From an uncultured Candidatus Saccharibacteria bacterium (GTDB lineage: Bacteria; Patescibacteriota; Minisyncoccia; Phycocordibacterales; Phycocordibacteraceae), in assembly GCA_964646315.1 (NCBI GenBank), contig CAZYDN010000001.1, positions 4,650-60,238 on the forward strand: 55,589 nucleotides of DNA. The letters are read 5' to 3'. Shown one piece after another: positions 20,447 through 55,589 of the stretch (position 1 is its first letter; the number at the start of each line of letters is the position of its first letter). The notes below the pieces were generated by a model that saw nothing but the letters and a program-made list of their open reading frames with translations, searched no databases and was not told the origin of the DNA. The position numbers and the translations under genes were made by a program.

Positions 20447-20470
20447 ATGTCGTAAGTATACCAGGATTCT

Positions 20471-21565
20471 CTATTGCACAACGGGTAGCGACAAGGTAAA
20501 AGTCGTGCCTGGAGTCTCTGTATTTGAGACGAAAGTCAGGTCTCCGCCATGGTCGGTAGCTATCGTGCGAGCAATATAGAGCCCCAAACCGTTACCGCCG
20601 TTTTGCATCGTGATAGCATTTTGCGCTCGATAGAACCGTTCAAAAATATTGTCTTTGTCCTTGTCTCCAATACCAATACCCGTGTCCCGCACTCGCAAGT
20701 AAACCTGAGCACCCTTTTGCTCACCGGAAATACGAACGGAACCATTCTCAGGAGTGTACCGAATAGCATTCTCGATAAGGTTATTGAGAATCCACTTAAT
20801 GCGCTGTCTATCAGCCTTAACTTGAGGTAAGGTCCCTCCCGTTTTTTCCACATACAGCGTTACCTTCGACTTTTGTGCGAGCGGCATAAAGTCGTTCACC
20901 ACTTCTTCTGCCACACTCTCCAAATCTACGGGAGTAAAAGCATATTTATATTTTCCAGACTCGATAGAAGAAATATCAAGAAGGGTGCCCACAATAGCCA
21001 CAAGCTCGTGACTCTTGTCGGTAGCGCTTTTCACAAGTGCTTTATGCTCCTCACTCATATCACTCTTTTCAAGAGCTTCCAGGGCCCACCGAATACCGGT
21101 GAGTGGCGTGCGCAGCTGGTGCGCAGCGGTAGAAATAAAATCTGACTTTACGCGTGATACTTCCACATCTTTCTTGTGCGCCTCATCTACCCGATCCACG
21201 AATCGTCCAAACACACTCACCAGTTTGCGCAGTTCCGAAGGAGCAGGAGGAAGTGCAGGAAGGGGTAATTTTTCTCCGCGCTCTGCAAACGCATCCATTG
21301 CGTTCACAATACCCTTGAGAGGTTTTGCTACGAGACTTTGGAGTATCCAGTACAAGGAAGCGAGAAGTACCGTGAGCACAGTGAGCGTACCAATAATTTG
21401 TGCGGCAAACAGAGTGTGAATGGCAGCTTCAGACTCAGCCACCAAGTTTATAGGAAATAAAACCGAAAGCTGGTCGTGGAGGAAGAGGAACGAGGGGAGA
21501 ATGACGGCAAACGAAGAGAGTAGAATTACCAACAGCAGGACTGCCAGCAGCATGCGAAGACTCAT
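20471..21565 (-). CDS. sensor histidine kinase
   Basis: TM region, HAMP-like segment, H-box FISTAAHQLRTPL, and HATPase motifs DTGIGI and GGNGLGLYI. Confidence 0.85.
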   Translation of the reverse strand: MSLRMLLAVLLLVILLSSFAVILPSFLFLHDQLSVLFPINLVAESEAAIHTLFAAQIIGTLTVLTVLLASLYWILQSLVAKPLKGIVNAMDAFAERGEKLPLPALPPAPSELRKLVSVFGRFVDRVDEAHKKDVEVSRVKSDFISTAAHQLRTPLTGIRWALEALEKSDMSEEHKALVKSATDKSHELVAIVGTLLDISSIESGKYKYAFTPVDLESVAEEVVNDFMPLAQKSKVTLYVEKTGGTLPQVKADRQRIKWILNNLIENAIRYTPENGSVRISGEQKGAQVYLRVRDTGIGIGDKDKDNIFERFYRAQNAITMQNGGNGLGLYIARTIATDHGGDLTFVSNTETPGTTFTLSLPVVQ

Positions 21566-26900: not shown

Positions 26901-27218
26901 TTAGTCGATGTCCGACACTGCCAGTATATCATCTGACAGGGTCTCTACAGCCTCCTGCACGGCGGTCTCTGCTCCTGGTACGCGGTTGAGTAAAAACGAC
27001 TGGAGCTCCTCCTCGTCCACATTCTTTTCCAAGAGCACTGAGAACTCCTCGCGAGTTGCCTCGTCCATATTTTCAATCATGCGCACCAATGAACTTTTAA
27101 AGATGAGTGAGTTTAGATCAAGCAACAACTCTTCTTGCTCTTTCATTGGCAGTGCTGAAATATCAAGCGCCGCTACTAATTTCTCAAACCTTGTAGTGTC
27201 AGTCATACTTACGTGCAT
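26901..27218 (-). CDS. small acidic hypothetical protein (DUF5663-like)
   Basis: 105 aa. The pattern LPMKEQEELLLDLNSLIFKSSLVRMIENMDEATREEF resembles DUF5663 proteins common in CPR genomes. The family assignment is from memory. Confidence 0.5.
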   Translation of the reverse strand: MHVSMTDTTRFEKLVAALDISALPMKEQEELLLDLNSLIFKSSLVRMIENMDEATREEFSVLLEKNVDEEELQSFLLNRVPGAETAVQEAVETLSDDILAVSDID

Positions 27219-30073: not shown

Positions 30074-30077
30074 ATAA

Positions 30078-40135: not shown

Positions 40136-40165
40136 TTGACGGGTGAACCCTGGTTCACCTACTAT
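40136..40165 (+). promoter_or_regulatory. lexA promoter with embedded SOS (LexA) box
   Basis: TTGACG (40136-40141), 18-nt spacer, TACTAT (40160-40165). The whole spacer is the perfect palindrome GGTGAACC-CT-GGTTCACC, which contains GAAC-N4-GTTC (40145-40156). The ATG at 40172 implies a leaderless or near-leaderless mRNA. Confidence 0.65.
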
Positions 40166-40171
40166 GAAGAG

Positions 40172-40741
40172 ATGGATTACCACTCACGCAAACGCGCTGT
40201 TATAGGATTTTGGCAACAACATCGCCGCATGCCCGGCTATCAGGAATTCATGAAATTACTGGGCGTGAAGTCCAAGAATTCCGTGTACCGTTTTGTAGGC
40301 AAACTCGTCGAGGACGGTGTACTAGAAAAAGACCTTCAGGGCAGAATCACTCCTGGTCGCGAGCTTCGTGGCGTTCCCTTGCTTGGCGTAGTGGAAGCTG
40401 GGTTCCCTACTCCCGCAGAAGAAGAAATGCTCGATGTGATGGATTTCGATGAATACCTCACCCCAAACAAGGAATCGAGTTACGTTCTCAAGGTGAAGGG
40501 CGACTCCATGATTGAAGCTGGCATACACCCGGGAGACTTGGTCATAGTAGAGCGCAAGCCGACCTACAAAGTCGGGCAAATTGTCATCGCTTCTATCGAG
40601 GGCGAATACACCATGAAGTATTTGCGAAAGAAGAACGACAAATACTATTTGGAACCGGCAAATAGTGAATACAAACCCATCTACCCAAAAGGCAATCTAA
40701 ATATTGAAGCTGTTGTTACGGCAATCGTTCGAAAATACTAA
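40172..40741 (+). CDS. lexA: LexA repressor
   Basis: Winged-helix N-terminus and an S24 peptidase C-terminus (VKGDSMIEAGI...IVIASIEGEYTMKYL). Start moved to MDYHSRKR because the operator occupies the upstream part of the ORF. Confidence 0.85.
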   Translation: MDYHSRKRAVIGFWQQHRRMPGYQEFMKLLGVKSKNSVYRFVGKLVEDGVLEKDLQGRITPGRELRGVPLLGVVEAGFPTPAEEEMLDVMDFDEYLTPNKESSYVLKVKGDSMIEAGIHPGDLVIVERKPTYKVGQIVIASIEGEYTMKYLRKKNDKYYLEPANSEYKPIYPKGNLNIEAVVTAIVRKY

Positions 40742-40757
40742 TAGGAACATCCATATT

Positions 40758-42035
40758 ATGAATGTTCCTAATCAGCGACAAAATTTTATATTACACGTAG
40801 ATGGAGACGCATTCTTCGCCATGTGCGAAGTTTCCAGGCGACCCGACCTGCGGGGGAAACCGGTGGTCACCGGGCGTGAACGTGGCATCGTAACTGCCGC
40901 CACCTACGAAGCCAAAGCGCTGGGTATCAGCAGGGCGACTCCCATACATGTTGTGCGAAGCCACTTCCCCCAGGTTACCGTTCTTCCTTCGGACTACGAA
41001 CTCTACGCCACTATTTCAAAGCGAATGTACGCGATTACAAGACGCCACGCACCTCTGGTAGAAGAATATGGTGTGGATGAATGCTTTGCAGACCTCTCTC
41101 ATGTAGCTGATCCCCTAGCATGTGCACGAGCGATAAAAGAAGATTTGCAACGAGAGCTCAATATGACTTTCTCTCTTGGCATGGGCCCTACAAAAGTGCT
41201 CGCGAAGCTCGCATCAAAGCACGAAAAGCCAAACGGATTCTGCGTCGTAACTGCCGAGAACCGCGAGACGCTTCTGCGTAACACGCCTGCCGCATATGTG
41301 TGGGGTATCGGCCCGCAGAGTGTAAAGAAGCTTGTTGGCATGGGTATTCATTCTTCGCTTGAATTTGTGCAATCAGACCGCGCGCGTATAGAACGCATTT
41401 TTACCAAACCCATGATTGAGGTATGGGAGGAGTTACGAGGAAACAGTGTACTTCCCGTAGATTACATAAACGCTACGGATCAAAAATCGGTACAGCGCAC
41501 TCGCACGTTTACCCCACCTACCCGCGACCCCCGTCATCTTTTCTCTGAACTCTCACAACACACAGAACATGGATGCAGAAAAATACGCAGGCTAGGACTA
41601 GTGGCCGACAGTATGAGTTTCTTTTTGAAGACACAGGACTTTCGCTACCAGGGTGGTGAAATTCGTTTGCTAGTTTCTACAAGCTCTCCGGGAGATATTC
41701 TTCCCCTTTTACGCTCTGCATTTTTGAAAGTATATAAAAAAAACATTCTGTATCGAGCCACAGGTATTACGCTGCACAATCTTCACGCTCCAAGTAGTGT
41801 GCAGCAAGATTTGTTTGATACCGAACACAAAGGAGAAAAGAACGAGCGGCTCATGATTGCCATGGATAGACTCGAGCATAAGTATGGCGATCATACGCTC
41901 TATCTGGGCACCAGTGCGCGCAGTATTATGCAGGACCGTCTGCAGCCCGCACCCTCACCCATTCACACCGAAGCTCTCATACACACAGACAAAGGATTGA
42001 AACGTTTTCCCATTCCCTATTTAGGGTCGGTGTAA
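40758..42035 (+). CDS. dinB: DNA polymerase IV
   Basis: ILHVDGDAFFAMCE and VDECFADLS, with Y-family polymerase architecture. It starts 17 nt after the lexA stop. Confidence 0.9.
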   Translation: MNVPNQRQNFILHVDGDAFFAMCEVSRRPDLRGKPVVTGRERGIVTAATYEAKALGISRATPIHVVRSHFPQVTVLPSDYELYATISKRMYAITRRHAPLVEEYGVDECFADLSHVADPLACARAIKEDLQRELNMTFSLGMGPTKVLAKLASKHEKPNGFCVVTAENRETLLRNTPAAYVWGIGPQSVKKLVGMGIHSSLEFVQSDRARIERIFTKPMIEVWEELRGNSVLPVDYINATDQKSVQRTRTFTPPTRDPRHLFSELSQHTEHGCRKIRRLGLVADSMSFFLKTQDFRYQGGEIRLLVSTSSPGDILPLLRSAFLKVYKKNILYRATGITLHNLHAPSSVQQDLFDTEHKGEKNERLMIAMDRLEHKYGDHTLYLGTSARSIMQDRLQPAPSPIHTEALIHTDKGLKRFPIPYLGSV

Positions 42036-45222: not shown

Positions 45223-45618
45223 CTACGTGATTGCTAGCCAGCGTTTAATGAAGCTTTTGAGTGCAGATTCACGCTCTTCAATATCCTTAATGCTCTTGAA
45301 TGTTGCGTACCCACGAATATCCGAGACCCACTCGAGGATTTGTGCGGCGTCTTCTATAATCGGTGCTCCCTTCTTATCCTCCTTGCGTAGTGCACCCATA
45401 TGAAAGACAAGCTTTACCCGACCCTCCTTATTCGCAACATTGAATGTAATTCGATCTTCTCCAGCAAATGCGTAATTCGGAGCGTTCCATTTGATACTTT
45501 CAACGAGTCGAGAATTGGCGGCAAGAATAATTCGGCGCAGAGATTCAATTTGAATTTTCTTTCCCTTTGGTTGGTCATTTAAAAATTCCTCGACGGTCTT
45601 ATACTTTTTCATACTCAT
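45223..45618 (-). CDS. DUF1801 (YdhG-like) domain protein
   Basis: VESIKWNAPNYAFAGEDRITF pattern. Its 5' region runs straight into motif copy 1. Confidence 0.65.
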   Translation of the reverse strand: MSMKKYKTVEEFLNDQPKGKKIQIESLRRIILAANSRLVESIKWNAPNYAFAGEDRITFNVANKEGRVKLVFHMGALRKEDKKGAPIIEDAAQILEWVSDIRGYATFKSIKDIEERESALKSFIKRWLAIT

Positions 45619-45650
45619 AGTGTAGCAAGGATGTTTTCACAGACTGATAT

Positions 45651-45678
45651 TGCAGGCAATCCGGGACGATGTTGGAAC
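45651..45678 (+). repeat. array motif copy 1 (left arm divergent)
   Basis: TGCAGGCAATCCGGGACGATGTTGGAAC. Confidence 0.85.
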
Positions 45679-45722
45679 CGTCCTAGTAGGAACTCGGTTT
45701 TCATGAACCCTTATAAAAAAGG

Positions 45723-45749
45723 TGGGCGCCGCAGATTGTGCGGCGCCCA
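45723..45749 (-). terminator. rho-independent terminator of the lipoprotein cassette
   Basis: TGGGCGCCGCA / TGCGGCGCCCA stem. On the minus strand it is followed by TTTTTT. Confidence 0.75.
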
Positions 45750-45766
45750 TTCGAAGAGATAATGCG

Positions 45767-46252
45767 TTACAGGGTACGACTGAAGCGGTAAGTCCGCCAC
45801 GCGCGGTCGTATGTGTCGCCGTCCTCAGGACACAGCACGCTCGTGAAATTACTCCACCGTAGCGTATCCGTTTCCTCGGTTGTTAACCTGAGTTCAGTAT
45901 CGCTTCCCCACCAAGGTTCGAGCGTGTAGCTCTTGTACCGACGGGAACTTTTTCCGAAGCGCTCGAATTCAGTGCTTTTGATGCGGTAGAACTCGCCGTC
46001 CTTACTGCGCAGCAGGACGACCCCTTCGTCGACATACTGGCAGCTATAGATCGCGCCTTGATAGTTTATGCCGATCCTAATCTTAAATTTATCAATGGCA
46101 TCGCGCTCTTTGGCATCAGCCACCTGTATTCGCGGCAATTTGCTATCGAGCAAATCAGCTCCCGACGGTGGAGCAGGAGATTTCGGACCAGGGTCGTCGT
46201 TGCAGGCTGCAGCCATGAGCGACAGAATAGCAATTGCGGTTACCTTGCGCAT
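45767..46252 (-). CDS. hypothetical lipoprotein
   Basis: MRKVTAIAILSLMAAAC is a signal peptide plus Cys. RBS AAGGAAA. It has its own promoter, TTGACA (46313-46308), 16-nt spacer, TATTAT (46291-46286). Confidence 0.6.
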   Translation of the reverse strand: MRKVTAIAILSLMAAACNDDPGPKSPAPPSGADLLDSKLPRIQVADAKERDAIDKFKIRIGINYQGAIYSCQYVDEGVVLLRSKDGEFYRIKSTEFERFGKSSRRYKSYTLEPWWGSDTELRLTTEETDTLRWSNFTSVLCPEDGDTYDRAWRTYRFSRTL

Positions 46253-46378
46253 GAATCGGTTTCCTTGTTTTCAAATCTATATACCATAATAGCATGTTAT
46301 ATAAGATTGTCAATCGACAAACATATTGACCCGTTTACGAATTACTCGTTGGCCATTTCGTATTCGTATACTCTATTA

Positions 46379-46403
46379 GCTGGCCGCGGGACGATGTTGG
46401 AAC
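46379..46403 (+). repeat. array motif copy 2
   Basis: GCTGGCCGCGGGACGATGTTGGAAC. Confidence 0.85.
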
Positions 46404-46478
46404 TGTCATGAATAATGTAAACCCACCGCCAAACAGTAGACAGAGGATTTCCATCTTAGTTCGACAGTGGGTTGGGTA

Positions 46479-46862
46479 TTAGCCGTTGGCTCGCATGTCC
46501 TCGACGGCGATCACTTCCAATTGGTCCACCAGCTTGATACGGTTTTCGGGGAGCAGGTACCCGAGTTGCACTTTTTCGCCGACCGATTGGATGACGGCGA
46601 TGACCTGCTCGATGACGAGCTTGGGATCGAAGGCGTAGCCGACACCAGTCTCGAGCGAATAGGTGCTCACCATGATTTCCCGATCGATGCCGGGAATCTC
46701 GGCGATTCCCTCGCAGATCTTCTTGCCGATTTCGGTAAGAGTGTCAGGGACATAGTCAGTCCTGAAGAAGCTCCGTGAGAGACGCGTGCGAAGACGCACA
46801 TCTAGATGAACCCTGAAACCGTTTCCGGTGCCTGAGGCTTTCTCGAACAGAATCGTAGCCAT
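46479..46862 (-). CDS. hypothetical protein (127 aa)
   Basis: RBS AGGAGA 6 nt before the ATG. A TTGACA-type promoter lies on the minus strand around 46935-46975. Confidence 0.55.
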   Translation of the reverse strand: MATILFEKASGTGNGFRVHLDVRLRTRLSRSFFRTDYVPDTLTEIGKKICEGIAEIPGIDREIMVSTYSLETGVGYAFDPKLVIEQVIAVIQSVGEKVQLGYLLPENRIKLVDQLEVIAVEDMRANG

Positions 46863-47088
46863 GAGTATCTCCTGGTTGACCCGCAGAAAGCGAGTATGAA
46901 AACAACAATTTCAATATTAATTTAACACTTATAATACGATATTGTCAATAGTAAATTGACTCTACGGAATAGAGCGACAACCCAGGCTAAATGGGGTCAG
47001 GACCCATTCTTTGGCCTGCCTACACCTCGTAGCTAAATGGCTACATGAGTCCTGCCCCCATTTATCATAAAGAGGTATTGAAAATATA

Positions 47089-47115
47089 GCTGGCAGTCTG
47101 GGACGATGTTGGAAC
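47089..47115 (+). repeat. array motif copy 3 (consensus)
   Basis: GCTGGCAGTCTGGGACGATGTTGGAAC, identical to copies 5 and 9. Confidence 0.95.
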
Positions 47116-47124
47116 TTTTTATAC

Positions 47125-47153
47125 TTGACTTAATATAGGTTTAGATTTATAAT
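47125..47153 (+). promoter_or_regulatory. sigma-70-type promoter of the 39-aa peptide cassette
   Basis: TTGACT, 17-nt spacer, TATAAT. Confidence 0.6.
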
Positions 47154-47181
47154 AAATGTACAGATCTTTAAGGAGCCGCCA

Positions 47182-47301
47182 ATGAATTGGTTAGCCTTTA
47201 TAATCGGCTTTTTGCTTGGATTTCCGATTAACCTAAGCATTGGCCTCTTGTGGGGAGTTGTCGCCGGTATGCTTCTGTTTCCTCCGAAAAAGAAGAACTG
47301 A
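47182..47301 (+). CDS. 39-aa hydrophobic membrane peptide
   Basis: RBS AAGGAG. MNWLAFIIGFLLGFPINLSIGLLWGVVAGMLLFPPKKKN. Not in the ORF track because it is under 60 aa. Confidence 0.5.
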   Translation: MNWLAFIIGFLLGFPINLSIGLLWGVVAGMLLFPPKKKN

Positions 47302-47367
47302 CATACCGGGGTAATCTCGCAGACGAGAGCGCACGACCTTTGGGTACGGCGCTCTTACTAATTTGAG

Positions 47368-47393
47368 TTGGCTGCGTGGGACGATGTTGGAAC
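47368..47393 (+). repeat. array motif copy 4
   Basis: TTGGCTGCGTGGGACGATGTTGGAAC. Confidence 0.85.
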
Positions 47394-47625
47394 TTTTGTA
47401 TATAAACGATGAGGGCCGGAACATTGTCCCGGCCCTCCGCCAACATCATATATGCCCTTAGGCACAGACCGAGCTAGTCATGATGCGGCGAACTCGGCTG
47501 CTCTAGTGGCCCTTACGCATAAGCCCTCCCTTCGTTAAAGGAAACGATTGGATCGGGTTTAGAATGTATCCGGTCCGTTTATAAGAGTGCCCTAGGGAGA
47601 AAGGTAAGTCAAAGATCATAATTTA

Positions 47626-47654
47626 TTGCTGGCAGTCTGGGACGATGTTGGAAC
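47626..47654 (+). repeat. array motif copy 5 (consensus)
   Basis: TTGCTGGCAGTCTGGGACGATGTTGGAAC. Confidence 0.95.
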
Positions 47655-47705
47655 CCTTATGCAATCTATGCTAGTTTCTGTCTAGACCAGAAATGGAGAG
47701 AATAG

Positions 47706-48215
47706 ATGAGATGGATTGGAATTAGTGGAGGTTGGCGAACAGCCAATGAAGTCGTCGAACGAGATGTCCGTGCCATGGTTCAGGGTATTCTCAATCGTGG
47801 CGACGGTATCGTCTCAGGAGGTGCCTTGAACGTGGACTACATTGCCACAGATGAAGCCCTGAAGCTGAATCCCGAAGCGACCCGTATCAAGGTGTTCCTC
47901 CCCGTTACGCTTGAGCGGTACTCTGCCCATTACAGGAACAGAGCCGAAGAAGGTGTCATTACACATGCGCAGGCCGAGATACTCATCGAGCAACTCACGC
48001 GCCTCAGAACGGCAAACGCATATGCGCTAATCGAGCATCCGACAAACACTGTCTGCAATGAGACTACCTACTATGAGCGGAACATGGAAGTTATCAATGC
48101 TTCTGACGAGCTCTACGCGTTTTGGATCAATCGTACTTCCGGTACGAAAGATGCTATTGAAAAGGCGAAGTCTCAAGGCAAGCCTGTTTCGATATTCAAC
48201 TATGAAGTCCCTTGA
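47706..48215 (+). CDS. SLOG/DprA-like Rossmann-fold protein (DUF2493-like), hypothetical
   Basis: 169 aa. IVSGGALNVDYIATDEAL resembles the GGAxGxD nucleotide-binding loop of the DprA/LOG/SLOG superfamily. RBS GGAGAG. Confidence 0.5.
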   Translation: MRWIGISGGWRTANEVVERDVRAMVQGILNRGDGIVSGGALNVDYIATDEALKLNPEATRIKVFLPVTLERYSAHYRNRAEEGVITHAQAEILIEQLTRLRTANAYALIEHPTNTVCNETTYYERNMEVINASDELYAFWINRTSGTKDAIEKAKSQGKPVSIFNYEVP

Positions 48216-48250
48216 GGGTCGCGGAGAGATTCGCGGCCTTTTCTTTTATA

Positions 48251-48274
48251 TTGCTGGCAGAGTAGGTATCGAAC
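48251..48274 (+). repeat. array motif copy 6, left half only
   Basis: TTGCTGGCAG is followed by the unrelated AGTAGGTATCGAAC. It directly abuts the stop of the flavoprotein gene. Confidence 0.6.
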
Positions 48275-49522
48275 TTACGCGTTCTTGCCCGCAATGTACC
48301 CGGTAGTCCAACAAAGCTGGAGCGAGTACCCTCCAGACGGACGAGTGATGTCGAGCAAATCTCCGGTGACCAAAAGATTTGAAATTTTTGTAGACCGCAT
48401 TGTGCGCATATCAATTTCTGCGAGAGTGACTCCCCCGTCTGCAACCACCGCTCTACTGAAGCCCATGAGCCCCGAGATAGTTGCCGGAAGCCCCTTAAAC
48501 AAATCCACAAGCACGCGGCGCTGCTCCTTGGTGACGCTGTGCACTTTGGTGTCCGGGTCTATCTCTGGAACTAATCCTAGAAGCACTTCTACGCAACTAG
48601 AAGGAATGAGGCTCGGGAGCGCATTACGAAGAAGTTTATTCTTGTTGCTATCAAAAAGAGCTACGAGCTCTTGATCGAGAATTCCAATGTCCTTTGTAGG
48701 AAATAAATCGATTGCAGCAGTTACTGTGCCCGCGTGGAGCAGGTCCGCTACATCTCCTGCACTGTTTAAAATAGTCGGTCCAGAAAGACCAAAGTGAGTA
48801 AGAAGGATATTTCCCTTCTTAGAGAAACTACGCACGCCATCTTGAAAGAACGTAATTTTTGCGTTTTCAAATGTCGTACCTTTTAACTTGTGAATCCACT
48901 TCTCCTTTGCAGCAAGTGGCACAATAGTGGGTGTAGGAGAGAGCACTGTGTGTCCAAGCTCAGAAAGCCAATTAAATCCGTCTCCCGTAGAGCCGGTCTC
49001 TGGGTGTGACACGCCTCCGGTAGCGAAAATGTAGGAATCAGCTGAAAATTCAAATCCTTGAGCCACAATTGAAGTAATTGCTCCAGCTTCTGTTTTAATG
49101 CGAGCAATTTCTGTATTAAGTCTCACCTCCACATTCCCCTTACGCAAATAGTCTTCAAGCGCAGCCACTACACTTGGTGCATGCTGTGACTTTGGAAATG
49201 CGCGATTAAGCTTCTCCACAACAATAGGCACGCCGATGCGTTCAAAAAAGGCCACCGACTCCTGCATACCGAACTCGGAAAATGCAGAAAAGAGAAAAGG
49301 TGCCGCTTCTCCGTAGTGTGACAGAAGTGCGCGCTCATTTTCCTGTGCGTTCAAAATATTGCAGCGTCCTCCACCTGAAATGGCGAGCTTCGCACCAAGC
49401 ACATCGTTCTTCTCAAGCAGAAGCACACGCTTCCCCGCCTCTGCAGCTATACCCGCAGCCATCATGCCCGAGGCTCCGCCGCCTACTACAATGACGTCGT
49501 GCGTATGTAGACTCTTAGCCAT
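48275..49522 (-). CDS. NAD(FAD)-utilising dehydrogenase, HI0933/BaiN family flavoprotein
   Basis: VIVVGGGASGMMAAG and LAISGGGRCN. Confidence 0.85.
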   Translation of the reverse strand: MAKSLHTHDVIVVGGGASGMMAAGIAAEAGKRVLLLEKNDVLGAKLAISGGGRCNILNAQENERALLSHYGEAAPFLFSAFSEFGMQESVAFFERIGVPIVVEKLNRAFPKSQHAPSVVAALEDYLRKGNVEVRLNTEIARIKTEAGAITSIVAQGFEFSADSYIFATGGVSHPETGSTGDGFNWLSELGHTVLSPTPTIVPLAAKEKWIHKLKGTTFENAKITFFQDGVRSFSKKGNILLTHFGLSGPTILNSAGDVADLLHAGTVTAAIDLFPTKDIGILDQELVALFDSNKNKLLRNALPSLIPSSCVEVLLGLVPEIDPDTKVHSVTKEQRRVLVDLFKGLPATISGLMGFSRAVVADGGVTLAEIDMRTMRSTKISNLLVTGDLLDITRPSGGYSLQLCWTTGYIAGKNA

Positions 49523-50399
49523 GAGTAACTTCCGAAGTGTTTGCTACGTGTTCTTTGCACTCGAGGGAGCAATAGGTACCAGACTCTTCTTGACAATCAC
49601 TGCAGGCGAGGAAATGAAGGTGGCAAAAATTATTAGCGCAGTTTACGTATTCCTCCGTAGCTGCTCCACAGTGCTTACAGCGCCCCACAATTTCACGGTC
49701 TCCACCAAAGTTCATGGTGAGACGTTTATCAAACGTATAAAGCGAGCCAAGGAAGTCCTTTCCAGGATACTTCTCCATATACGCATGCATGCCGTTCTCC
49801 AGCTGGTACACATCGTTAAATCCGTTCTCAAGAAGAAAGGCAGACATCTTTTCGCAGCGAATACCTCCCGTGCAGACAGTGAGCACCGTTTTGTCTTTGA
49901 GCTCTTCGAGCTTTGGCAGTGCGAGTGGCAAGTCACGAGAGTTCTCAAGACCTGGATTTATAGAATCTTTGAAGTGTCCGGCCTGGTACTCGTAGTCGTT
50001 GCGCATATCTACAACCACAAAGTCTTTTCCTTCCTCGTACCAATTGCGAAGCTCTTCTGGCTTTAAGTGGGTGGCAGTGCGTACGCGAGGATCCACATTC
50101 TTAGGAAAACGAGTACCCACAATTTCGTCTCGCACTTTTACATACAATTTAGAAAACGCAGCTCCGGTGCCTTCGCTACGCTTTATGTTCATATCTGAGA
50201 AACGCGGGTGTTCAAGCAAGCTAGACGCGAAGAGTTCTGTATTTTCTACAGTCCCTTCTACGGTGCCGTTTATTCCCTCTTCTGCTACCAATATGCGGCC
50301 AAGGAGGCCGTGCTTTGTGGCAAGAGCACGAATACTATGCATAAGGGCAACAGGGTCCTCTATGGTGACGTATTTATAGAAAAGCAGTACTTGCGGCAT
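49515..50399 (-). CDS. trhO: rhodanese-domain protein of the UPF0176/TrhO family
   Basis: LLFYKYVTIEDP N-terminus, a rhodanese domain with CTGGIRCE, and a C-terminal Cys cluster. Confidence 0.75.
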   Translation of the reverse strand: MPQVLLFYKYVTIEDPVALMHSIRALATKHGLLGRILVAEEGINGTVEGTVENTELFASSLLEHPRFSDMNIKRSEGTGAAFSKLYVKVRDEIVGTRFPKNVDPRVRTATHLKPEELRNWYEEGKDFVVVDMRNDYEYQAGHFKDSINPGLENSRDLPLALPKLEELKDKTVLTVCTGGIRCEKMSAFLLENGFNDVYQLENGMHAYMEKYPGKDFLGSLYTFDKRLTMNFGGDREIVGRCKHCGAATEEYVNCANNFCHLHFLACSDCQEESGTYCSLECKEHVANTSEVTHG

Positions 50400-50441
50400 G
50401 ATTTTTGCATTTTACCAGGTTCGTGGCGTCCTGTCAGTTTG

Positions 50442-50984
50442 CTACTTCGAAGGCAAGGTTAATGAATATTCACCAATATGAATCCATTCAGATACTTCAC
50501 CTTCGGTTTTATATAGATGTATACGATCTACTAGAAATGTCTCGCCTGGAGGCAGCGAAAGTGCCTGCGCAGTTTTTTGCTTGCGGTCATACGGGTAATT
50601 CCCATACAGCAAACTTACGTGTGGAATATACGCTCTCTCATCCTCAGTACCAAAAATCTGGTTCGCACTTTTATGTGCTCGCACTATCTCTTCACACTCT
50701 GCATGAACATACAGGGCTCTAAAATAAGCATCTTCAAGACCAAAATTTCCAAGAGTAATGGAAAACGGAGCGATCTGTTCTGCTAGGAGTTTTGCCTTCT
50801 CTACAAGAAGCGCTTCTTCCTCTGAGGCAATGCGAGCAAGTAGTGTGACATGGGGAGTGAATAATGGACCTCCGTACTCTTCCGCAAGCTGCTCAATAAC
50901 GGTACTAAGCTTTTGACGGAGGACACCTTCAGGCTCTAGAAAAAGATGGTATCCGGCAGTGCTACTACTGTGGGGATCGAACAT
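50442..50984 (-). CDS. 2H phosphoesterase / 2'-5' RNA ligase family protein
   Basis: Two HxT/S motifs, PHVTLLA and PHVSLLY. Confidence 0.75.
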   Translation of the reverse strand: MFDPHSSSTAGYHLFLEPEGVLRQKLSTVIEQLAEEYGGPLFTPHVTLLARIASEEEALLVEKAKLLAEQIAPFSITLGNFGLEDAYFRALYVHAECEEIVRAHKSANQIFGTEDERAYIPHVSLLYGNYPYDRKQKTAQALSLPPGETFLVDRIHLYKTEGEVSEWIHIGEYSLTLPSK

Positions 50985-51057
50985 TTCAGCATAGTATCAC
51001 GCACACCAGGTAGACTCATTTCTCCTTCGCTTCTTGGCAATAACTTATGTGAAAAGG

Positions 51058-51684
51058 TTAATCCTGAATGTGTAGCCCAAAAACTCCTGAGAGATAGAGC
51101 GCTTGTCCTGTTGATACGGTTACATTCTCGATACTCGTTTTATCTATTTTTATATCTTCTAGATTGGATCCGGGGAACTGCACGTCCATGAGTTTTCCAG
51201 ATACAAATTGAGCACTTTCCAAATTACAGTTCCGAAACTCTACATTTTCGAGCGTTGCACCGAGAAAATCACACCCAACCATTTCGCATGAATAAAAAAG
51301 AACATCCTTCAATTTACTAAATCTAAAGTTGGCTCCATCGAGCTTCGAGGAAGCAAAATGCACATCTTGCATATCGGACTCTGCAAGGGTCACCGCCTGG
51401 AATCGGGTGGACTTTACTAGCACACGATTAAGACTCGCCTCGTACACCGCCGCCCCGGTGAACGTGCACTTTTCCAAAATTGTGTCCGTTATATTCGCCT
51501 CGGCTACATTGGCTCCAGTAAAATTACTATTTTCTACAACGCATTCTTCGAACGTAACTTTCTCTAACTTCGCGTCCTCCAGAAGCGCGCCCACCACTAG
51601 CGCACCTTCCATATATATCTCTGCTCCAGGACTCACTTGTGTATGCGTGAGCTTTTCTCGTTTTACGTCCGGCTTGCGTACCAT
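51058..51684 (-). CDS. pentapeptide-repeat protein
   Basis: Continuous A(D/N)LxX-type pentapeptide repeats. Confidence 0.8.
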   Translation of the reverse strand: MVRKPDVKREKLTHTQVSPGAEIYMEGALVVGALLEDAKLEKVTFEECVVENSNFTGANVAEANITDTILEKCTFTGAAVYEASLNRVLVKSTRFQAVTLAESDMQDVHFASSKLDGANFRFSKLKDVLFYSCEMVGCDFLGATLENVEFRNCNLESAQFVSGKLMDVQFPGSNLEDIKIDKTSIENVTVSTGQALYLSGVFGLHIQD

Positions 51685-51693
51685 ACGGTGATT

Positions 51694-51948
51694 CTATCCT
51701 ACCTCGCGATGAGGACATCCTGCCCAGCAACACGGACGACGCATACCACCATTGAGCTTGGATATCGCTTTCTCAATACGAATACTTCTTGTCTCAGCCT
51801 TCTTGCCCGACGTTACCCAGCAAATCCATTCACTACGCGCGAGTGGTGTGATGTCTTCCCACACGGTGCGCGCTTTCACGGAAGCAGACAGCGCTTCACG
51901 CAAGTCCTTTGGCAGAGAGTGCATCGAGCCGGAGGCCAGGTTCTTCAT
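51694..51948 (-). CDS. YdeI/OmpD-associated family protein
   Basis: PKDLREAL...WEDITPLARSEWICWV...KAETRSIRIEKAISKL pattern. Confidence 0.6.
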   Translation of the reverse strand: MKNLASGSMHSLPKDLREALSASVKARTVWEDITPLARSEWICWVTSGKKAETRSIRIEKAISKLNGGMRRPCCWAGCPHREVG

Positions 51949-51970
51949 ATGGTAATTATATCAAAATATA

Positions 51971-51992
51971 GCTACCAGAAATCAGTTGGAAC
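51971..51992 (+). repeat. array motif copy, right half intact and left half degenerate
   Basis: GCTACCAGAAATCAGTTGGAAC followed by CTTTTAT, as in other copies. Confidence 0.6.
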
Positions 51993-52023
51993 CTTTTATG
52001 TTCACAGATAGTTATCCTAGTAT

Positions 52024-52281
52024 ATGTCACCTAAACACATTTCTTTTACTGCGCTTGGAACGTTTATTATTCTTCTTATCCCTTACCTATTTAAATGGCC
52101 ATGGACGGTCAGTGATTTTGTTGTCGCGGGGTCCATCATTTTTGTGGCAGGAATTAGTCTTAGCCTTATTTGGCAAAAGGCAGGAAAACATCGCCTTGGG
52201 GGAGTTATTGCACTAGTACTACTCTTCGTGTGGCTCTGGGCAGAGCTTGCTGTTGGTGTTTTTACTAACTGGGGAAGTTAG
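52024..52281 (+). CDS. 85-aa membrane protein, hypothetical
   Basis: Three hydrophobic helices and no SD. The ATG lies 9 nt after TAGTTA, so the mRNA may be leaderless. Confidence 0.5.
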   Translation: MSPKHISFTALGTFIILLIPYLFKWPWTVSDFVVAGSIIFVAGISLSLIWQKAGKHRLGGVIALVLLFVWLWAELAVGVFTNWGS

Positions 52282-52306
52282 AAACTATCAAGATTAGATG
52301 TGGCCC

Positions 52307-53077
52307 TTAGGATTTCTTAAAACCTTCAAACGCCTTTAGCACCTCGAGCGGAAGGGCGAACACTACCGTGTTCGATTGATCTGAAGAAATATCATTTATC
52401 GATTGGAGCGTTCGTAGATGAAGTGCTCCCGGAACAGCCGAGAGGATGCTTGCCGCCTGAGCAACCTTTTCGGCAGCCGCAAGTTCTCCCTCAGAGTTGA
52501 TAATAACGGCGCGCTTCTCGCGCTCAGCCTCTGCCTGCTTCGCAATGGTGCGCTCCATTTCGGGAGGAAGACTCACATCTTTCAGTTCAACGTTCTGAAC
52601 TTTTAGACCCCATGCATCAGTTTCAAGATCTACTATCTCGCGAATGCGCTCCGCAATTCTATCCCTTCCTGAAAGAAGTTCGTCCAAAGTAACTTCGCCC
52701 ACAATATTACGCATAGTTGTTTGAGCGTACTGCGAAATTGCATAGCGGAAATCCTCTACCTCTATAATTACTTTTTCGGCATCAGATACTTTGTAATAAA
52801 TAACAGCATTAACACGCACTGAAACGTTGTCGCGCGTAATTGCATTTTGGTCGGGCACATCAACAGCTTTGGTACGCATGTCGACCTTTTGAAAGGCCTG
52901 AAATATCGGGATAACTATTCTCCATCCGGGTTCCAAAATTCCAGAGAACCGACCCATAGTAAAAAGTACCCCGCGCTCGTACTGGTTAATTTGTCGGATA
53001 ACAAGAAACAGAACTGCGATTGCAGCAACTACAAGAATAAGAAGAAATAGAGGGTCCATATGTAAGTATCGTATCAT
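52307..53077 (-). CDS. SPFH/band 7 (stomatin-like) protein
   Basis: N-terminal TM helix plus an SPFH core (VDMRTKAVDVPDQNAITRDNVSVRVNAVIYYKV). The start could be 53059. Confidence 0.85.
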   Translation of the reverse strand: MIRYLHMDPLFLLILVVAAIAVLFLVIRQINQYERGVLFTMGRFSGILEPGWRIVIPIFQAFQKVDMRTKAVDVPDQNAITRDNVSVRVNAVIYYKVSDAEKVIIEVEDFRYAISQYAQTTMRNIVGEVTLDELLSGRDRIAERIREIVDLETDAWGLKVQNVELKDVSLPPEMERTIAKQAEAEREKRAVIINSEGELAAAEKVAQAASILSAVPGALHLRTLQSINDISSDQSNTVVFALPLEVLKAFEGFKKS

Positions 53078-53186
53078 TTTTCTGAATGAGAAAATGGTTA
53101 ATGAATTGGCCTTCCTGCAATTCTAAACGACCCCCTGCTAATTCCACACGTAACTAATAGGAATTACGTAATGTTATAGGAAGTAT

Positions 53187-53486
53187 ATGAAATGGAATCC
53201 TCTGATAAATGCCGTATTCGCTGTGCTTTATATAGGTACTGTAGTTCTCTTTATGCATTATATTGAGTCACTACGTCACAATACTCCAGACACCTTCCTA
53301 GATGGTATTGGCGCAATTTCTCTGTTTGTATTTTCCGCAGCAATTATGGCTTTCCTGTTTTTTTATCAGCCTATCGTAAGACTCATAGAGAATAAGAAGA
53401 CCGAAGCGGTATCGTACTTTCTCAAAACGCTTGGCATATTTGGCTTTGTAACGCTCGTGATACTTGTCTTAGTAAGTATTCAATAG
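53187..53486 (+). CDS. 99-aa membrane protein, hypothetical
   Basis: RBS AGGAAG and three TM helices. Confidence 0.55.
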   Translation: MKWNPLINAVFAVLYIGTVVLFMHYIESLRHNTPDTFLDGIGAISLFVFSAAIMAFLFFYQPIVRLIENKKTEAVSYFLKTLGIFGFVTLVILVLVSIQ

Positions 53487-53518
53487 ATACTCGCAGCTGG
53501 GATAAAGTGTAAACGTCT

Positions 53519-53701
53519 TCAATTCCCTTCTTTCAACGCTCTGCGTATCAAGGATTCTGCGATTCGCAGTGCAGCAATTCTGTTTTCAATAAGTGTCAGA
53601 TGACCCCGGGTTAAATTCACCTTCGCCTTCTCACTCTTACTAATCAAAGAGTTAATCCTCTCAAGTGCACCCTCTAGTTCTTCTTTAGAAAAATCTATCA
53701 T
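53519..53701 (-). CDS. 60-aa helical hypothetical protein
   Basis: ORF only, with a weak RBS. Confidence 0.35.
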   Translation of the reverse strand: MIDFSKEELEGALERINSLISKSEKAKVNLTRGHLTLIENRIAALRIAESLIRRALKEGN

Positions 53702-53791
53702 GCCTGAATTCTACACTGTTGGAGCACCGCCATCTGAGATGACTTTGGAATATTCCGAATAATGGAAAAAGCGACCACGTGAGTGATCGCC

Positions 53792-54016
53792 TTATTCTAA
53801 TAATTCGACTTCCTTCCGTCGAACTAATTTATCGATACCAACAAGTCGATATGCCGGAGTCAGAGATAAGGGGTCCTCGAATTTAGATTCTACCGTCACC
53901 GTAGCGCCGATAAGATTACAAACGCATCCCCTATTCTCTCCGTGTTCACGGGCTTCGCAGACAAGCACCGATACCAACTTCCCAATGATCTTGTCATCGT
54001 ATGTCCATGTGGTCAT
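53792..54016 (-). CDS. 74-aa hypothetical protein
   Basis: RBS GGAGG 5 nt before the ATG of MTTWTYDD. A minus-strand terminator hairpin lies at 53773-53792. Confidence 0.5.
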   Translation of the reverse strand: MTTWTYDDKIIGKLVSVLVCEAREHGENRGCVCNLIGATVTVESKFEDPLSLTPAYRLVGIDKLVRRKEVELLE

Positions 54017-54080
54017 AGGAACCTCCAATCTCAGTTGAGGATGCCAGGAACGAATTGTTAAATCAAGTTAACAATCTAAG

Positions 54081-54093
54081 GCGATGTTGGAAC
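54081..54093 (+). repeat. array motif copy, right half only
   Basis: GCGATGTTGGAAC. The sequence to its left is unrelated to the motif's left arm. Confidence 0.7.
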
Positions 54094-54146
54094 CTTTCAG
54101 TAATACATGGTAATTTCCGTCCAGAGCAACCTTAAGGAGTTCCAAG

Positions 54147-54308
54147 ATGGGTCAAACCATTGAGATTTGGAGGGCCTGTGGCATCGGGTTCTTTGTCGCC
54201 ATATTCACTTTCACTATTGGAGCAGTGATTGGGAAAGGGATTGGCTGGAACCAATGCGGTCGGCTTCTCCGTCCCAGCCTGTTCCCGCCCCGAAAGCGAA
54301 ACCACTAA
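54147..54308 (+). CDS. 53-aa membrane peptide
   Basis: RBS AAGGAG. MGQTIEIWRACGIGFFVAIFTFTIGAVIGKGIGWNQCGRLLRPSLFPPRKRNH. The terminator follows immediately. Confidence 0.5.
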   Translation: MGQTIEIWRACGIGFFVAIFTFTIGAVIGKGIGWNQCGRLLRPSLFPPRKRNH

Positions 54309-54340
54309 CACCCAACGAGATCACCTGACCTCGTTGGGTG
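54309..54340 (+). terminator. hairpin terminator
   Basis: CACCCAACGAG / CTCGTTGGGTG 11-bp stem followed by TTCTC. Confidence 0.6.
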
Positions 54341-54353
54341 TTCTCACTATATG

Positions 54354-54380
54354 GCTGGCAGTTTGGAACGATGTTGGAAC
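54354..54380 (+). repeat. array motif copy 8
   Basis: GCTGGCAGTTTGGAACGATGTTGGAAC. Confidence 0.9.
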
Positions 54381-54450
54381 CAGGCTACGATTGACAATAC
54401 AATTTTGTAAGGTTACATCTATATACAGAATTAAACATACGGAGCTTCAG

Positions 54451-54702
54451 ATGAGCGAACGTAAGCCCTTTAAGAAGGTGCGCGAGGATGGCTGGATCGG
54501 TGGCGTGTGCGGAGGTATTGCGTATGCCTTCGGCATACCGACACTCTGGTTACGCATAATAGTAATCATTGTGCTCTTCTGCTTCACTAACCCCTTCTTC
54601 GACTATCTAGGTCAGTTTGTCTTCTGGTTCTATCTCCTAGCTTGGATCTTTGGACCAGATTGGGACACTGACCCCGAAGACTATAAAGAACGGACGGCTT
54701 AA
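54451..54702 (+). CDS. PspC-domain membrane protein (83 aa)
   Basis: REDGWIGGVCGGIAYAFGIPTLWLRIIVIIV is a PspC-domain signature. RBS ACGGAG. The track ORF 54229..54702 is an artefactual upstream extension across motif copy 8. Confidence 0.7.
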   Translation: MSERKPFKKVREDGWIGGVCGGIAYAFGIPTLWLRIIVIIVLFCFTNPFFDYLGQFVFWFYLLAWIFGPDWDTDPEDYKERTA

Positions 54703-54706
54703 TATG

Positions 54707-54735
54707 CCCACCGGCGGAATTCCCGCTCAGGTGGG
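54707..54735 (+). terminator. rho-independent terminator
   Basis: CCCACC...GGTGGG with an inner GGCGG/CCGC pairing, followed by TTTTCTGTTTT. Confidence 0.7.
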
Positions 54736-54752
54736 TTTTCTGTTTTATAAAA

Positions 54753-54781
54753 TTGCTGGCAGTCTGGGACGATGTTGGAAC
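54753..54781 (+). repeat. array motif copy 9 (consensus)
   Basis: TTGCTGGCAGTCTGGGACGATGTTGGAAC. Confidence 0.95.
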
Positions 54782-54827
54782 CTGTATTTTGACGTGATAC
54801 CCTCTATATAGAGAAGGGAGACACCTT

Positions 54828-54995
54828 ATGAGTAAGTCAGTTCAGATTGTCGGCGGACCCGATTGGAAAAATGAAGTCCAGCGGCGTATCGCTGAAGGTC
54901 GCAAAAGACTCAGGACCTTTATGAGTTCTGAGTTCGAAAGCTACACAAGACGCGTGCTGGGTGATCGGTACAATGAACTCGTCGGAAATCCGTAA
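54828..54995 (+). CDS. 55-aa basic hypothetical protein
   Basis: RBS AAGGGAG. MSKSVQIVGGPDWKNEVQRRIAEGRKRLRTF... The terminator follows. Confidence 0.5.
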   Translation: MSKSVQIVGGPDWKNEVQRRIAEGRKRLRTFMSSEFESYTRRVLGDRYNELVGNP

Positions 54996-55006
54996 CCCTA
55001 GCCGTC

Positions 55007-55034
55007 GAAACCGTCCTCGTATGAGGGCGGTTTC
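55007..55034 (+). terminator. rho-independent terminator
   Basis: GAAACCGTCCTC-GTAT-GAGGGCGGTTTC followed by ATTCTTTATT. Confidence 0.7.
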
Positions 55035-55042
55035 ATTCTTTA

Positions 55043-55071
55043 TTGCTGACAGTTTGGAACGATGTTGGAAC
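55043..55071 (+). repeat. array motif copy 10
   Basis: TTGCTGACAGTTTGGAACGATGTTGGAAC. Confidence 0.9.
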
Positions 55072-55125
55072 CTTTTATATAAAAAACCGCCCATATACCG
55101 GGGCGGCGTCGGTTCCTCACAGCCC

Positions 55126-55434
55126 TCATCGAGCTAACGGGATGCTGAAGTAATACCAGGCTCTCACTAAGGTAATCGAGCTGGTTCCTGTATCCCCCGT
55201 AGATTTGGAGAAAAAGGATTCAAAATATGTTCCCTGATCAACAGCGTATTCAAGCAAAGTGATCATCTGTTCGAGATCACCAAGCTCAACACGTAGAGCT
55301 TCTTGAACATGCACCTGCCTGACGAGGATCGGCTTGCAGCCGCGAAGGATGAAGCTAGTCGGTAATGCAGTAACATCAAGACGACGTGCCTTTTCCTTTG
55401 CGAGCCGTTCTTTTTCGGCATACCACGCATCCAT
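55126..55434 (-). CDS. 102-aa hypothetical protein
   Basis: Start taken at MDAWYAEKE, with RBS AAAGGA. A minus-strand terminator (55087-55106 plus T-run) lies downstream. Its own promoter is TTGACG, 16-nt spacer, TATTGT, on the minus strand around 55462-55489. Confidence 0.5.
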   Translation of the reverse strand: MDAWYAEKERLAKEKARRLDVTALPTSFILRGCKPILVRQVHVQEALRVELGDLEQMITLLEYAVDQGTYFESFFSKSTGDTGTSSITLVRAWYYFSIPLAR

Positions 55435-55496
55435 TATGGTTCCTTTCTGTTCGTTTCTGCACTGACAATACAACTCTAGCTTCGCACGTCAAATAA

Positions 55497-55523
55497 GCTG
55501 GTAGTCTGGAACTATATTGGAAC
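55497..55523 (+). repeat. array motif copy 11 (diverged)
   Basis: GCTGGTAGTCTGGAACTATATTGGAAC. Confidence 0.8.
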
Positions 55524-55570
55524 CTTTTGTAGGTCATGATACGGTGGCCTCAGATAAGAAAGGATATCTC

Positions 55571-55589
55571 ATGTCCAATGAATCACGCC
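55571..55589 (+). CDS. start of a further cassette gene, truncated by the window edge
   Basis: ATG is preceded by AAAGGA and lies 47 nt after motif copy 11. Confidence 0.3.

Follow-up and report, generated by a model that had tools for sequence, protein, structure and literature searches.

The window analysed here, a stretch of 55,589 nucleotides from an uncultured Candidatus Saccharibacteria bacterium (GenBank assembly GCA_964646315.1, contig CAZYDN010000001.1), carries two arrays of small genes punctuated by a short direct repeat, the 29-mer TTGCTGGCAGTCTGGGACGATGTTGGAAC, which is present in ten clear and three decayed copies, all on the plus strand. This motif is an unstructured, asymmetric, intergenic sequence of 29-35 nt that keeps a direct orientation within each array, and comparison with related genomes shows that at these direct copies whole one-gene cassettes enter, are lost and are swapped among strains, genomes and chromosomal hotspots. 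At up to three mismatches the 29-mer matches the window six times on the plus strand, against 0.00 matches expected in shuffles, and its 14-nt core matches nine times at up to one mismatch, again with every match on the plus strand, either at 45.6-47.7 kb or at 54.0-55.1 kb; a scan of the first 45 kb found no copy. The repeat copies of the original prediction are real, their coordinates shifting by only 0-4 nt, and three of them (47087, 47626 and 54753) do share an identical 27 nt. Its “half” copy at 48251 is a genuine decayed copy, and its “degenerate” one an internally shortened relic. What must be revised is the single continuous array that it described, as array A (45650-48277) and array B (53719 to ~1.1 kb beyond the window end) are separated by 5.4 kb (48.3-53.7 kb) of ordinary genes (HI0933-like, Band 7 and others) holding one relic only. 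Array B does pass the right edge of the window as had been proposed, with two further cassettes followed by a DnaJ-domain gene. The copies are listed below, where L122 denotes a lineage 86-93% identical to the window and L059 a locus from another genome.

45650-45678, plus strand: copy 1, three mismatches, left edge of array A; on its reverse side the −10 element TGcTACACT lies 6 nt before the ATG of a DUF1801 gene (45223-45612, minus strand)
46375-46403, plus strand: copy 2, 3′ 16 nt exact, 5′ half diverged, 1-nt indel
47087-47115, plus strand: copy 3, one mismatch
47365-47393, plus strand: copy 4, 5′ half diverged
47626-47654, plus strand: copy 5, exact; with its predicted forward promoter module it spans 47626-47687 (−35 TTGGAA, 17-nt spacer, extended −10 TGcTAGTTT at 47669-47677; conserved to about the transcription start)
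48251-48277, plus strand: decayed copy TTGCTGGCAGAGTAGGTATCGAACTTA, right edge of array A, kept in L059; contiguous with the HI0933-like gene (48275-49522, minus strand) at that gene's 3′ end
~51968-51997, plus strand: relic copy TAGCTACCAGAAATCAGTTGGAACCTTTT, internally shortened, preceding a small membrane-protein gene (52024-52281)
~53719-53753, plus strand: decayed copy M′, actual left boundary of array B; its orthologue in L122 is the 5′ part of the only copy there
54065-54093, plus strand: copy 6, 5′ half unrelated to the L122 copy, 3′ half and forward module orthologous to it
54352-54380, plus strand: copy 7, clear
54753-54781, plus strand: copy 8, exact; homology with L122 ends at base 54781
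55043-55071, plus strand: copy 9, clear
55495-55523, plus strand: copy 10, diverged core AACTATATTGGAAC

One small gene per interval had been proposed, and this layout holds. Most plus-strand cassettes have terminators, and the three clear minus-strand genes carry canonical promoter-like sites and ribosome-binding sites of their own, as stated earlier, with terminators at two of them (45767-46252 and 55126-55434). The contents of the two arrays, with predicted promoters and terminators, are as follows.

45767-46252, minus strand: 161-aa gene, lipoprotein-like N-terminus, no Pfam hit; own promoter TTGACA-16-TATTAT (46313-46286) and own terminator (45749-45723)
46479-46862, minus strand: 127-aa gene, no Pfam hit; own promoter 46948-46919
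47182-47301, plus strand: gene for a 39-aa membrane peptide, after copy 3; near-consensus promoter TTGACT-17-TATAAT (47125-47153)
47400-47610, minus strand: cassette without a convincing open reading frame (ORF); strong fold (−76.6 kcal/mol, z = −3.0), terminator 47437-47411
47706-48215, plus strand: 169-aa SLOG/DprA-like (YoqJ-like) gene; terminator 48214-48241
53792-54028, minus strand: 74-78-aa gene inside the 332-nt cassette 53751-54082
54147-54308, plus strand: 53-aa membrane-protein gene, after copy 6 and TGgTAATTT; terminator 54307-54342
54451-54702, plus strand: PspC-domain gene, after copy 7; TTGGAA-18-TACAAT (54374-54403), terminator 54722-54735
54828-54995, plus strand: 55-aa gene, after copy 8 and TGaTACCCT; terminator 55007-55034
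55126-55434, minus strand: 102-aa gene; its terminator (55107-55086) comes after copy 9
55572 onward, plus strand: gene leaving the window, after copy 10 and TGaTACGGT; 133 or 151 aa as called in other assemblies

The cassette at 47400-47610 has no Rfam match and no homologue among the loci introduced below, and may encode a non-coding RNA transcribed from copy 5 in the reverse direction.

To place the motif in a wider context, we scanned one genome per species (185,579 species, 596 Gb) with a 27-nt degenerate pattern whose calculated chance expectation in this collection is 0.03 matches, and obtained 81 stretches from 40 assemblies, most genomes being represented by 8-kb pieces only. All titles that name a group name Patescibacteria lineages (Parcubacteria, Paceibacterota and similar), while a few give no more than “uncultured bacterium”. 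Housekeeping genes of cellular organisms, among them dnaX, uvrABC and those for tRNA synthetases, are present in the window and the loci; the same pattern gave 0 matches in viral contigs, and a 101-nt query had no match among phage and plasmid records. Together the 81 loci and the window hold 247 copies that are clustered, intergenic (called genes overlap only 4 of them) and co-oriented, with a median spacing of 549 nt and a gene in each interval. A logo of 240 non-redundant copies shows a sharp-edged block of 35 nt, the 29-mer followed by CTTTnT, with nothing conserved on average outside it. About 25 species share one and the same consensus although the DNA identity of their housekeeping genes is only 65-75%, and such constancy over 29 nt points to a conserved protein, either a regulator or a recombinase, by which the site is read. 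Of the intergenic gaps sampled near hotspots in these genomes, 5-10% contain this 29-nt signal. One genome, L011 (CAYGLK assembly), departs from the common sequence in that the consensus of its seven copies has TTAGAAC in place of TTGGAAC, a coordinated change which suggests that the copies have either co-evolved with a binding protein or been homogenised within the genome. A short, intergenic, multicopy repeat is also what a family of miniature inverted-repeat transposable elements or insertion sequences might leave behind, but we consider it extremely improbable that the copies are such remnants: no terminal inverted repeats, no target-site duplications and no transposase were found in the window or the loci, the edges of the 35-nt block are sharp, viral contigs and phage or plasmid records gave no match, and the motif stays identical across species that have diverged so far in their housekeeping genes. 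The searched literature does not contain the motif sequence, nor anything relevant on integrons or promoters in this group, in line with the original prediction, which knew of no described element with this site; the motif-bounded cassette layout thus appears to be so far undescribed.

The check proposed earlier, whether related loci differ by entire cassettes that end in the motif, comes out positive in several comparisons among related genomes and with one related strain, the breakpoints lying at the motif or within it. In three genomes of 85-91% identity (CAMTWI, JAUPKX and JALHML), a gene B and its motif are common to all, with completely different sequence upstream, where one genome has gene A directly and another at least 5 extra cassettes. 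Similarly, at a place where L043 carries one gene, a 2.1-kb array with four motifs is found in L063. A cassette encoding 74 aa is 86% identical between L008 and L076, with homology running exactly from outer motif edge to outer motif edge, and lies in unrelated contexts in these two genomes, whose housekeeping proteins are only 69-72% identical. L122 is without exactly the cassette 53751-54082 (332 nt); the left part of its single copy is orthologous to M′ and the right part to copy 6, which places the breakpoint inside the motif. At copy 8, the window and L122 are homologous only as far as the final base of GGAAC, beyond which their cassettes differ. A second contig of the same metagenome assembly, L112, is 99.9% identical to window positions 45544-47658 and departs 4 nt after copy 5 into the dnaX hotspot. 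More generally, the points at which homology between loci ends fall within 10 nt of a motif four times more often than random positions. The window block 47622-48277, which holds the SLOG gene, is 87.7% identical to L059, with different neighbouring genes. We do not claim horizontal transfer of this cassette, as the 88% match may only reflect close kinship; the SLOG family is widespread at 55-68% identity and stands in three other genomes in ordinary contexts devoid of the motif, so that our claim is limited to the same cassette having different neighbours.

The arrays occupy conserved hotspots, among them one downstream of FtsQ-Dus-dnaX (18 loci) and another, as in the window, beside the HI0933-like gene, and the distance from the ABC-F gene to HI0933 is ~380 nt in the nearest relative versus 4.5 kb, including array A, in the window; a metagenome scan for relatives of the HI0933 hotspot returned few loci, mostly motif-free. 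Array genes are small and mostly singletons among the loci. Clustering of 887 proteins from the loci gave 619 clusters, and of 101 genes flanked by motifs on either side only 4 could be matched to a gene of another genome. The minority with Pfam matches (HAD, Nudix, histidine phosphatase, methyltransferase, Zeta, HicB) are diverse small enzymes and toxin-antitoxin parts.

Over 238 copies, we compared the frequency of −10 elements at given distances from the motif with that at control offsets. On the forward side, the extended −10 TGnTAnnnT lies 16-17 nt after GGAAC in 47 copies versus 0 at control offsets, a position that would make TTGGAA a −35 element with a 17-18-nt spacer, and the genes on this side start 46-70 nt on with a ribosome-binding site. 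In ~33 copies from >15 genomes the conserved block of the forward module extends to 62 nt, to the predicted transcription start, and the genes that lie past it are unrelated singletons; within the window, the copies at 47626, 54065, 54753 and 55495 are of this type. On the reverse side, past ...CCAGCAA, an extended −10 occurs within 4-12 nt in 48 of the 238 copies versus 5 at control offsets, at offset 6-8 (or 10-12), and ATG codons peak at +18/19, which suggests that the reverse-side genes are read from leaderless transcripts. Copy 1 alone appears to be used in this way in the window (DUF1801 gene), at a longer distance. An extended −10 at a fixed distance on either side marks the motif as the probable core of a compact bidirectional promoter. 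Upstream of it, terminators lie 9-18 nt from the copies at 54352, 54753 and 55043 and from the relic at 48251, and together with the promoter signals they make the unit in the window a terminator-promoter composite; outside the window, many copies abut stop codons with no hairpin between them. A 77-nt unit of terminator plus motif is duplicated at 87% identity on one contig (L026 6472-6548 and L036 1210-1285), a duplication within one genome that fits the copying of the composite unit rather than of the 29-mer by itself.

As a matter of the clade at large, ~40% of housekeeping genes in the 81 loci and the window have TGnTAnnnT starting 12-15 nt before the ATG. Leaderless, extended −10 promoters are predicted for 170 housekeeping genes; we found no −35 signal in the clade's housekeeping genes and a Shine-Dalgarno-like sequence in only ~25% of them, and leaderless, −35-less promoters seem to be the norm here. 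Promoters in which a regulator site replaces the −35 are exemplified by Pho boxes and by the mycobacterial PafBC/RecA-NDp motif. These resemble the reverse side of our motif in having a long conserved site just upstream of the −10 and no canonical −35, and the PafBC/RecA-NDp promoters also in their often leaderless transcripts. They serve, however, regulons of conserved genes and flip with the gene, whereas our motif has a fixed orientation, singleton genes and breakpoints. Sigma-54 (−24/−12) and ECF-type (GGAAC-N16-17-CGT/TCTGA) promoters were considered and set aside, the order or spacing of elements misfitting by eye and the −10s being of the ordinary extended type.

The motif is nonetheless more than a promoter. 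Gene geometry was read from calls by a codon-usage and ribosome-binding-site scorer that is imperfect, and the counts that depend on it are approximate. Twenty-seven copies lie between convergent gene ends, in several cases with both stop codons within 0-5 nt, where the motif cannot act as a promoter, and the 18-nt core is as conserved in these copies as elsewhere, although the search itself required a good core. Nearly every copy (246/247) is on the same strand as the other copies of its 8-kb locus. Motif direction agrees with that of the flanking long genes in 61 of 81 loci and with GC skew in 63 of 82, and array genes point forward 49 times and in reverse 52 times; orientation must therefore be fixed by something other than the adjacent gene. 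The uniform motif orientation alongside variable gene orientation that had been noted in the window is thus general, and the copies do not lie only upstream of genes in their own direction. Together with the cassette-level differences, this orientation upholds the view of the motif as a cassette boundary. The claim that it is not simply a promoter or leader attached to each gene stands as far as this boundary role and the two gene directions go, and falls short in that the motif is tied to promoters on both sides.

These observations bear on two explanations that dispense with recombination at the motif. A site of regulation only, namely the operator or promoter of a large accessory or stress regulon, with ordinary gene gain and loss ending at intergenic promoters, would fit the −10 elements at fixed distances on both sides, the internal direct repeats CTGGGAC-N4-TTGGAAC with their 11-bp period, which resemble the boxes of OmpR/PhoB-type response regulators, the recurrence of Nudix, HAD and histidine phosphatase families downstream of the motif, and the unchanged cassette order in same-strain assemblies from other samples. 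We nevertheless regard it as unlikely, since the 27 copies between convergent genes are equally conserved, orientation ignores gene direction where a regulator site would be expected to flip with the gene, the ~47 bits of information are far above what an operator needs in a genome of ~1 Mb, breakpoints match the motif to the base with homology ends enriched fourfold within 10 nt, and the downstream genes are almost all unrelated singletons. Alternatively, the motif could be a polar chromosome-level signal relative to replication, such as a fork barrier or strand-orienting site, that accumulates in permissive intergenic gaps. The site is asymmetric and unstructured, its orientation tracks flanking gene direction and GC skew and is mostly uniform along contigs of several hundred kb, and its core ATGTTGGAAC resembles the E. 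coli Ter core, ATGTTGTAAC, a 10-mer whose likeness may be chance. Ten copies in 10 kb with one-gene intervals and several clusters per genome are, however, unlike Ter or KOPS, the tight −10 spacing and the breakpoints inside the motif are left unexplained, and in about a quarter of the loci orientation contradicts the flanking genes, so that we give this explanation very little credence.

The reading we favour, with about an even chance of being right, is that the motif is the core of a bidirectional promoter/operator module that doubles as the recombination point of hypervariable arrays, through a regulator combined with homologous exchange. The module would punctuate arrays of small accessory genes in one Patescibacteria clade, in the window usually after the terminator of the upstream gene. 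Its 3′ end, TTGGAA, would provide the −35 of genes that have a ribosome-binding site and are transcribed in the direction leading off from it, and an extended −10 located 6-8 nt past the 5′ end would drive leaderless genes in the opposite direction. A conserved sequence-specific DNA-binding protein probably occupies the motif, which would account for the retention of the full 29 nt, between convergent genes as well; a regulator gene under its own motif was searched for and none was found. Shuffling would most likely proceed by recombination between repeated modules, with incoming DNA or excised circles using the module as homology, as is the case for the promoter-early stem-loop (PeSL) discussed below, and we suppose that a dedicated integrase adjoining the array is not involved.

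Several points weigh against the promoter/operator module with homologous exchange. A length of 29 nt is short for RecA-type recombination, and homologous recombination alone leaves the identity across species unexplained, so that a second constraint, the proposed binding protein, is needed. The L112 junction could be a recombinant between arrays or an assembly chimera at the repeat. Assemblies at least 99.6% identical to the window, from several other samples, keep its order, and turnover is accordingly not fast; the contigs that depart from this order, the diverged L122 and L112, both belong to one metagenome assembly. The promoter function is predicted from spacing statistics, and in 112 of the 238 copies neither side has a −10 at the canonical offset. 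The set of copies is itself biased towards well-conserved cores, which the search pattern demanded. Finally, as only 8-kb pieces were seen for most genomes, an unlinked recombinase may be encoded elsewhere.

This last point leads to the possibility, which we regard as doubtful but worth weighing, of an integron-like site-specific system, in which an unlinked recombinase would act on the 29-nt double-stranded site, cutting out one-gene cassettes as circles and integrating them at copies already in place. The promoter halves would then be an added feature through which a cassette is expressed in either orientation, and the direct repeats would be explained. Such a system accords with the conservation of all 29 positions in ~25 species, even between convergent genes, with strictly direct orientation within arrays and random gene orientation, with breakpoints inside the motif (the hybrid copy of the L122-window comparison and the L112 junction copy, in which one base is changed), with the presence of the same cassette and both its flanking motifs in different hotspots, with arrays at several conserved hotspots, and with a content like that of chromosomal integrons (Nudix, HAD, toxin-antitoxin parts and many orphans). 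Set against this, no recombinase domain was found among the 30 window ORFs scanned, as the original prediction had observed for the window, no recombinase family recurs among the protein families of the 81 loci, and the recombinase or transposase suggested to lie just beyond the right edge is not within the ~2 kb past the end of the array, which hold the DnaJ-domain gene after the two further cassettes. The site also lacks the dyad symmetry normally shown by the core sites of tyrosine and serine recombinases, its precise spacing to −10s on both sides is unexpected of a pure recombination site, and only two breakpoints can be placed within the motif, too few to establish a fixed crossover point. 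In the same tentative spirit, it is conceivable that this Patescibacteria clade has its own chromosomal cassette-acquisition system, parallel to integrons but built differently, with a double-stranded, asymmetric, unstructured 29-nt site whose halves each carry promoter signals and so allow expression of a cassette in either orientation, an unlinked recombinase or DNA-binding enzyme, and several conserved hotspots.

Comparison with the described cassette systems helps to delimit what these arrays are. Like chromosomal integrons, and like CALINs, which have no integrase, they consist of small variable one-gene cassettes with a co-oriented site at which gain and loss occur, and orphan genes, toxin-antitoxin parts and small enzymes are common to the content of both. 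However, an integron attC site is conserved in structure and variable in sequence, being an imperfect inverted repeat (R″-L″...L′-R′) that folds as a single-stranded hairpin, whereas our motif is conserved in sequence and unstructured and has no such repeat. It folds at only 0 to −0.3 kcal/mol on either strand, with 181 and 200 of 200 shuffles folding at least as well, and no inverted repeat spanning any window copy was found, which bears out the earlier observation that the site has neither attC-like inverted repeats nor dyad symmetry. The integron crossover core is GTTRRRY and the motif has GTTGGAA-C, with A rather than a pyrimidine as seventh base. Integrons have an adjoining IntI, attI and Pc, none of which was found in the window or the loci; their cassettes are mostly promoterless and co-oriented with the site, whereas array genes are oriented 49:52 and have −10 elements of their own, with full predicted promoters and terminators in the window, and, in contrast to attC, the motif itself carries promoter signals. 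The pdif modules of Acinetobacter plasmids, on which XerC/XerD act, are likewise small gene modules with a ~28-bp site and no recombinase gene inside. A dif site has two 11-bp arms forming an imperfect dyad around a 6-bp spacer, whereas the corresponding arms of the motif, TTGCTGGCAGT and the reverse complement of CGATGTTGGAAC, agree at 4 of 11 positions, and pdif sites alternate in orientation and reside on plasmids, unlike the direct, chromosomal and promoter-coupled copies described here. The resemblance to integron or dif-module arrays that had been proposed is thus borne out in the whole-cassette differences at the site, but membership fails on the defining features of both families.

The closest described counterpart is instead the PeSL, a mobile regulatory cassette found in hyperplastic regions of T4-type phage genomes (Arbiol et al. 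2010, PMC2839356; Comeau et al. 2014, PMC4122927), with consequences for the arrays that are integron-like. PeSL consists of a sigma-70-type promoter and a stem-loop terminator, and recombination between its copies yields mini-circles (PMC2839356, PMC4122927). Like PeSL, our motif belongs to a short conserved module, with predicted promoter signals and at several window copies a terminator, that lies between small, mostly orphan, non-essential genes, and in both cases relatives show insertions, deletions and replacements bounded by the modules with no dedicated adjoining recombinase. The differences are that PeSL is found in T4-type phages and our motif in cellular Patescibacteria chromosomes (0 viral hits), that the 29-nt core is identical across many species far beyond the −35 and −10 hexamers, and that the motif is bidirectional, strictly co-oriented, and kept also when there is no terminator and between convergent genes. 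If the promoter/operator reading with homologous exchange is true, it would extend the idea of a mobile regulatory cassette from T4-type phages to cellular chromosomes.

Patescibacteria have tiny genomes with few recognised mobile elements and few regulators, and the motif bears on how they acquire and test new genes. If our reading is true, the motif would offer a searchable handle on gene flux in an uncultured group, in that a simple pattern finds the variable gene pool in any assembly, and a predicted strong portable promoter for organisms that have no characterised one. Should a dedicated enzyme exist, the arrays would represent a new class of site-specific cassette system.

Other identities were considered for the motif and rejected. 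A CRISPR array has repeats of 28-37 nt with spacers of ~30-40 nt, which contrasts with the median spacing of 549 nt and the gene in each interval seen here, and the Pfam hits of the window and loci include no cas genes. A LexA box is brought to mind by GGAC-N7-GAAC, which recalls the alphaproteobacterial direct-repeat box, but in the window the motif is absent from the surroundings of lexA, uvrA, uvrB, uvrC and the Y-family polymerase gene. Coding sequence or a leader peptide is excluded by reading frames that are inconsistent among copies, and an RNA element by the lack of any Rfam hit at E up to 1 and of a fold; moreover, where a cassette has a promoter and a terminator, its transcript would not include the motif. 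A DNA uptake sequence would be expected genome-wide on both strands, rather than clustered on one strand as these copies are.

The scanned material also yielded a number of smaller observations. Short-read contigs in Logan begin or end exactly at motif copies (window 47626; L082-L085, L103, L120); the repeat fragments short-read assemblies at the motif, and arrays are therefore likely under-represented or mis-joined in metagenome-derived genomes. The L110 contig contains a mirror-image duplication, with the same genes in inverted order around ~5.1 kb, that is unrelated to the motif and probably an assembly artefact. On the reverse complement of L112, the ~116 nt between the copies at 3468-3496 and 3323-3351 form a mini-cassette that consists solely of a near-consensus TTGACA-17-TATAAT promoter, a stretch of ~70 nt and a terminator with a GC-rich hairpin, and which may be a small-RNA cassette. 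Elsewhere in the window, a LexA-like protein (Peptidase_S24, 201 aa; 40136-40741) is directly followed by a Y-family polymerase (IMS), the pair spanning 40136-42035, and UvrA (17285-19939), UvrB (21588-23660) and UvrC (15386-16642) complete a DNA-damage set that is compact for a small genome. Between uvrA and uvrB, at 20033-21565, a histidine kinase stands beside a stand-alone receiver protein (137 aa) with no DNA-binding domain. At 27218-32819 a 913-aa HerA/TraG-like ATPase is followed by a 951-aa protein that has no Pfam hit, and the two may be part of a secretion, conjugation or pilus-like machine. Lastly, a surface protein of 1404 aa is encoded at 4735-8949, with five YDG, three MBG, one Ig-like and one peptidoglycan-binding domain.

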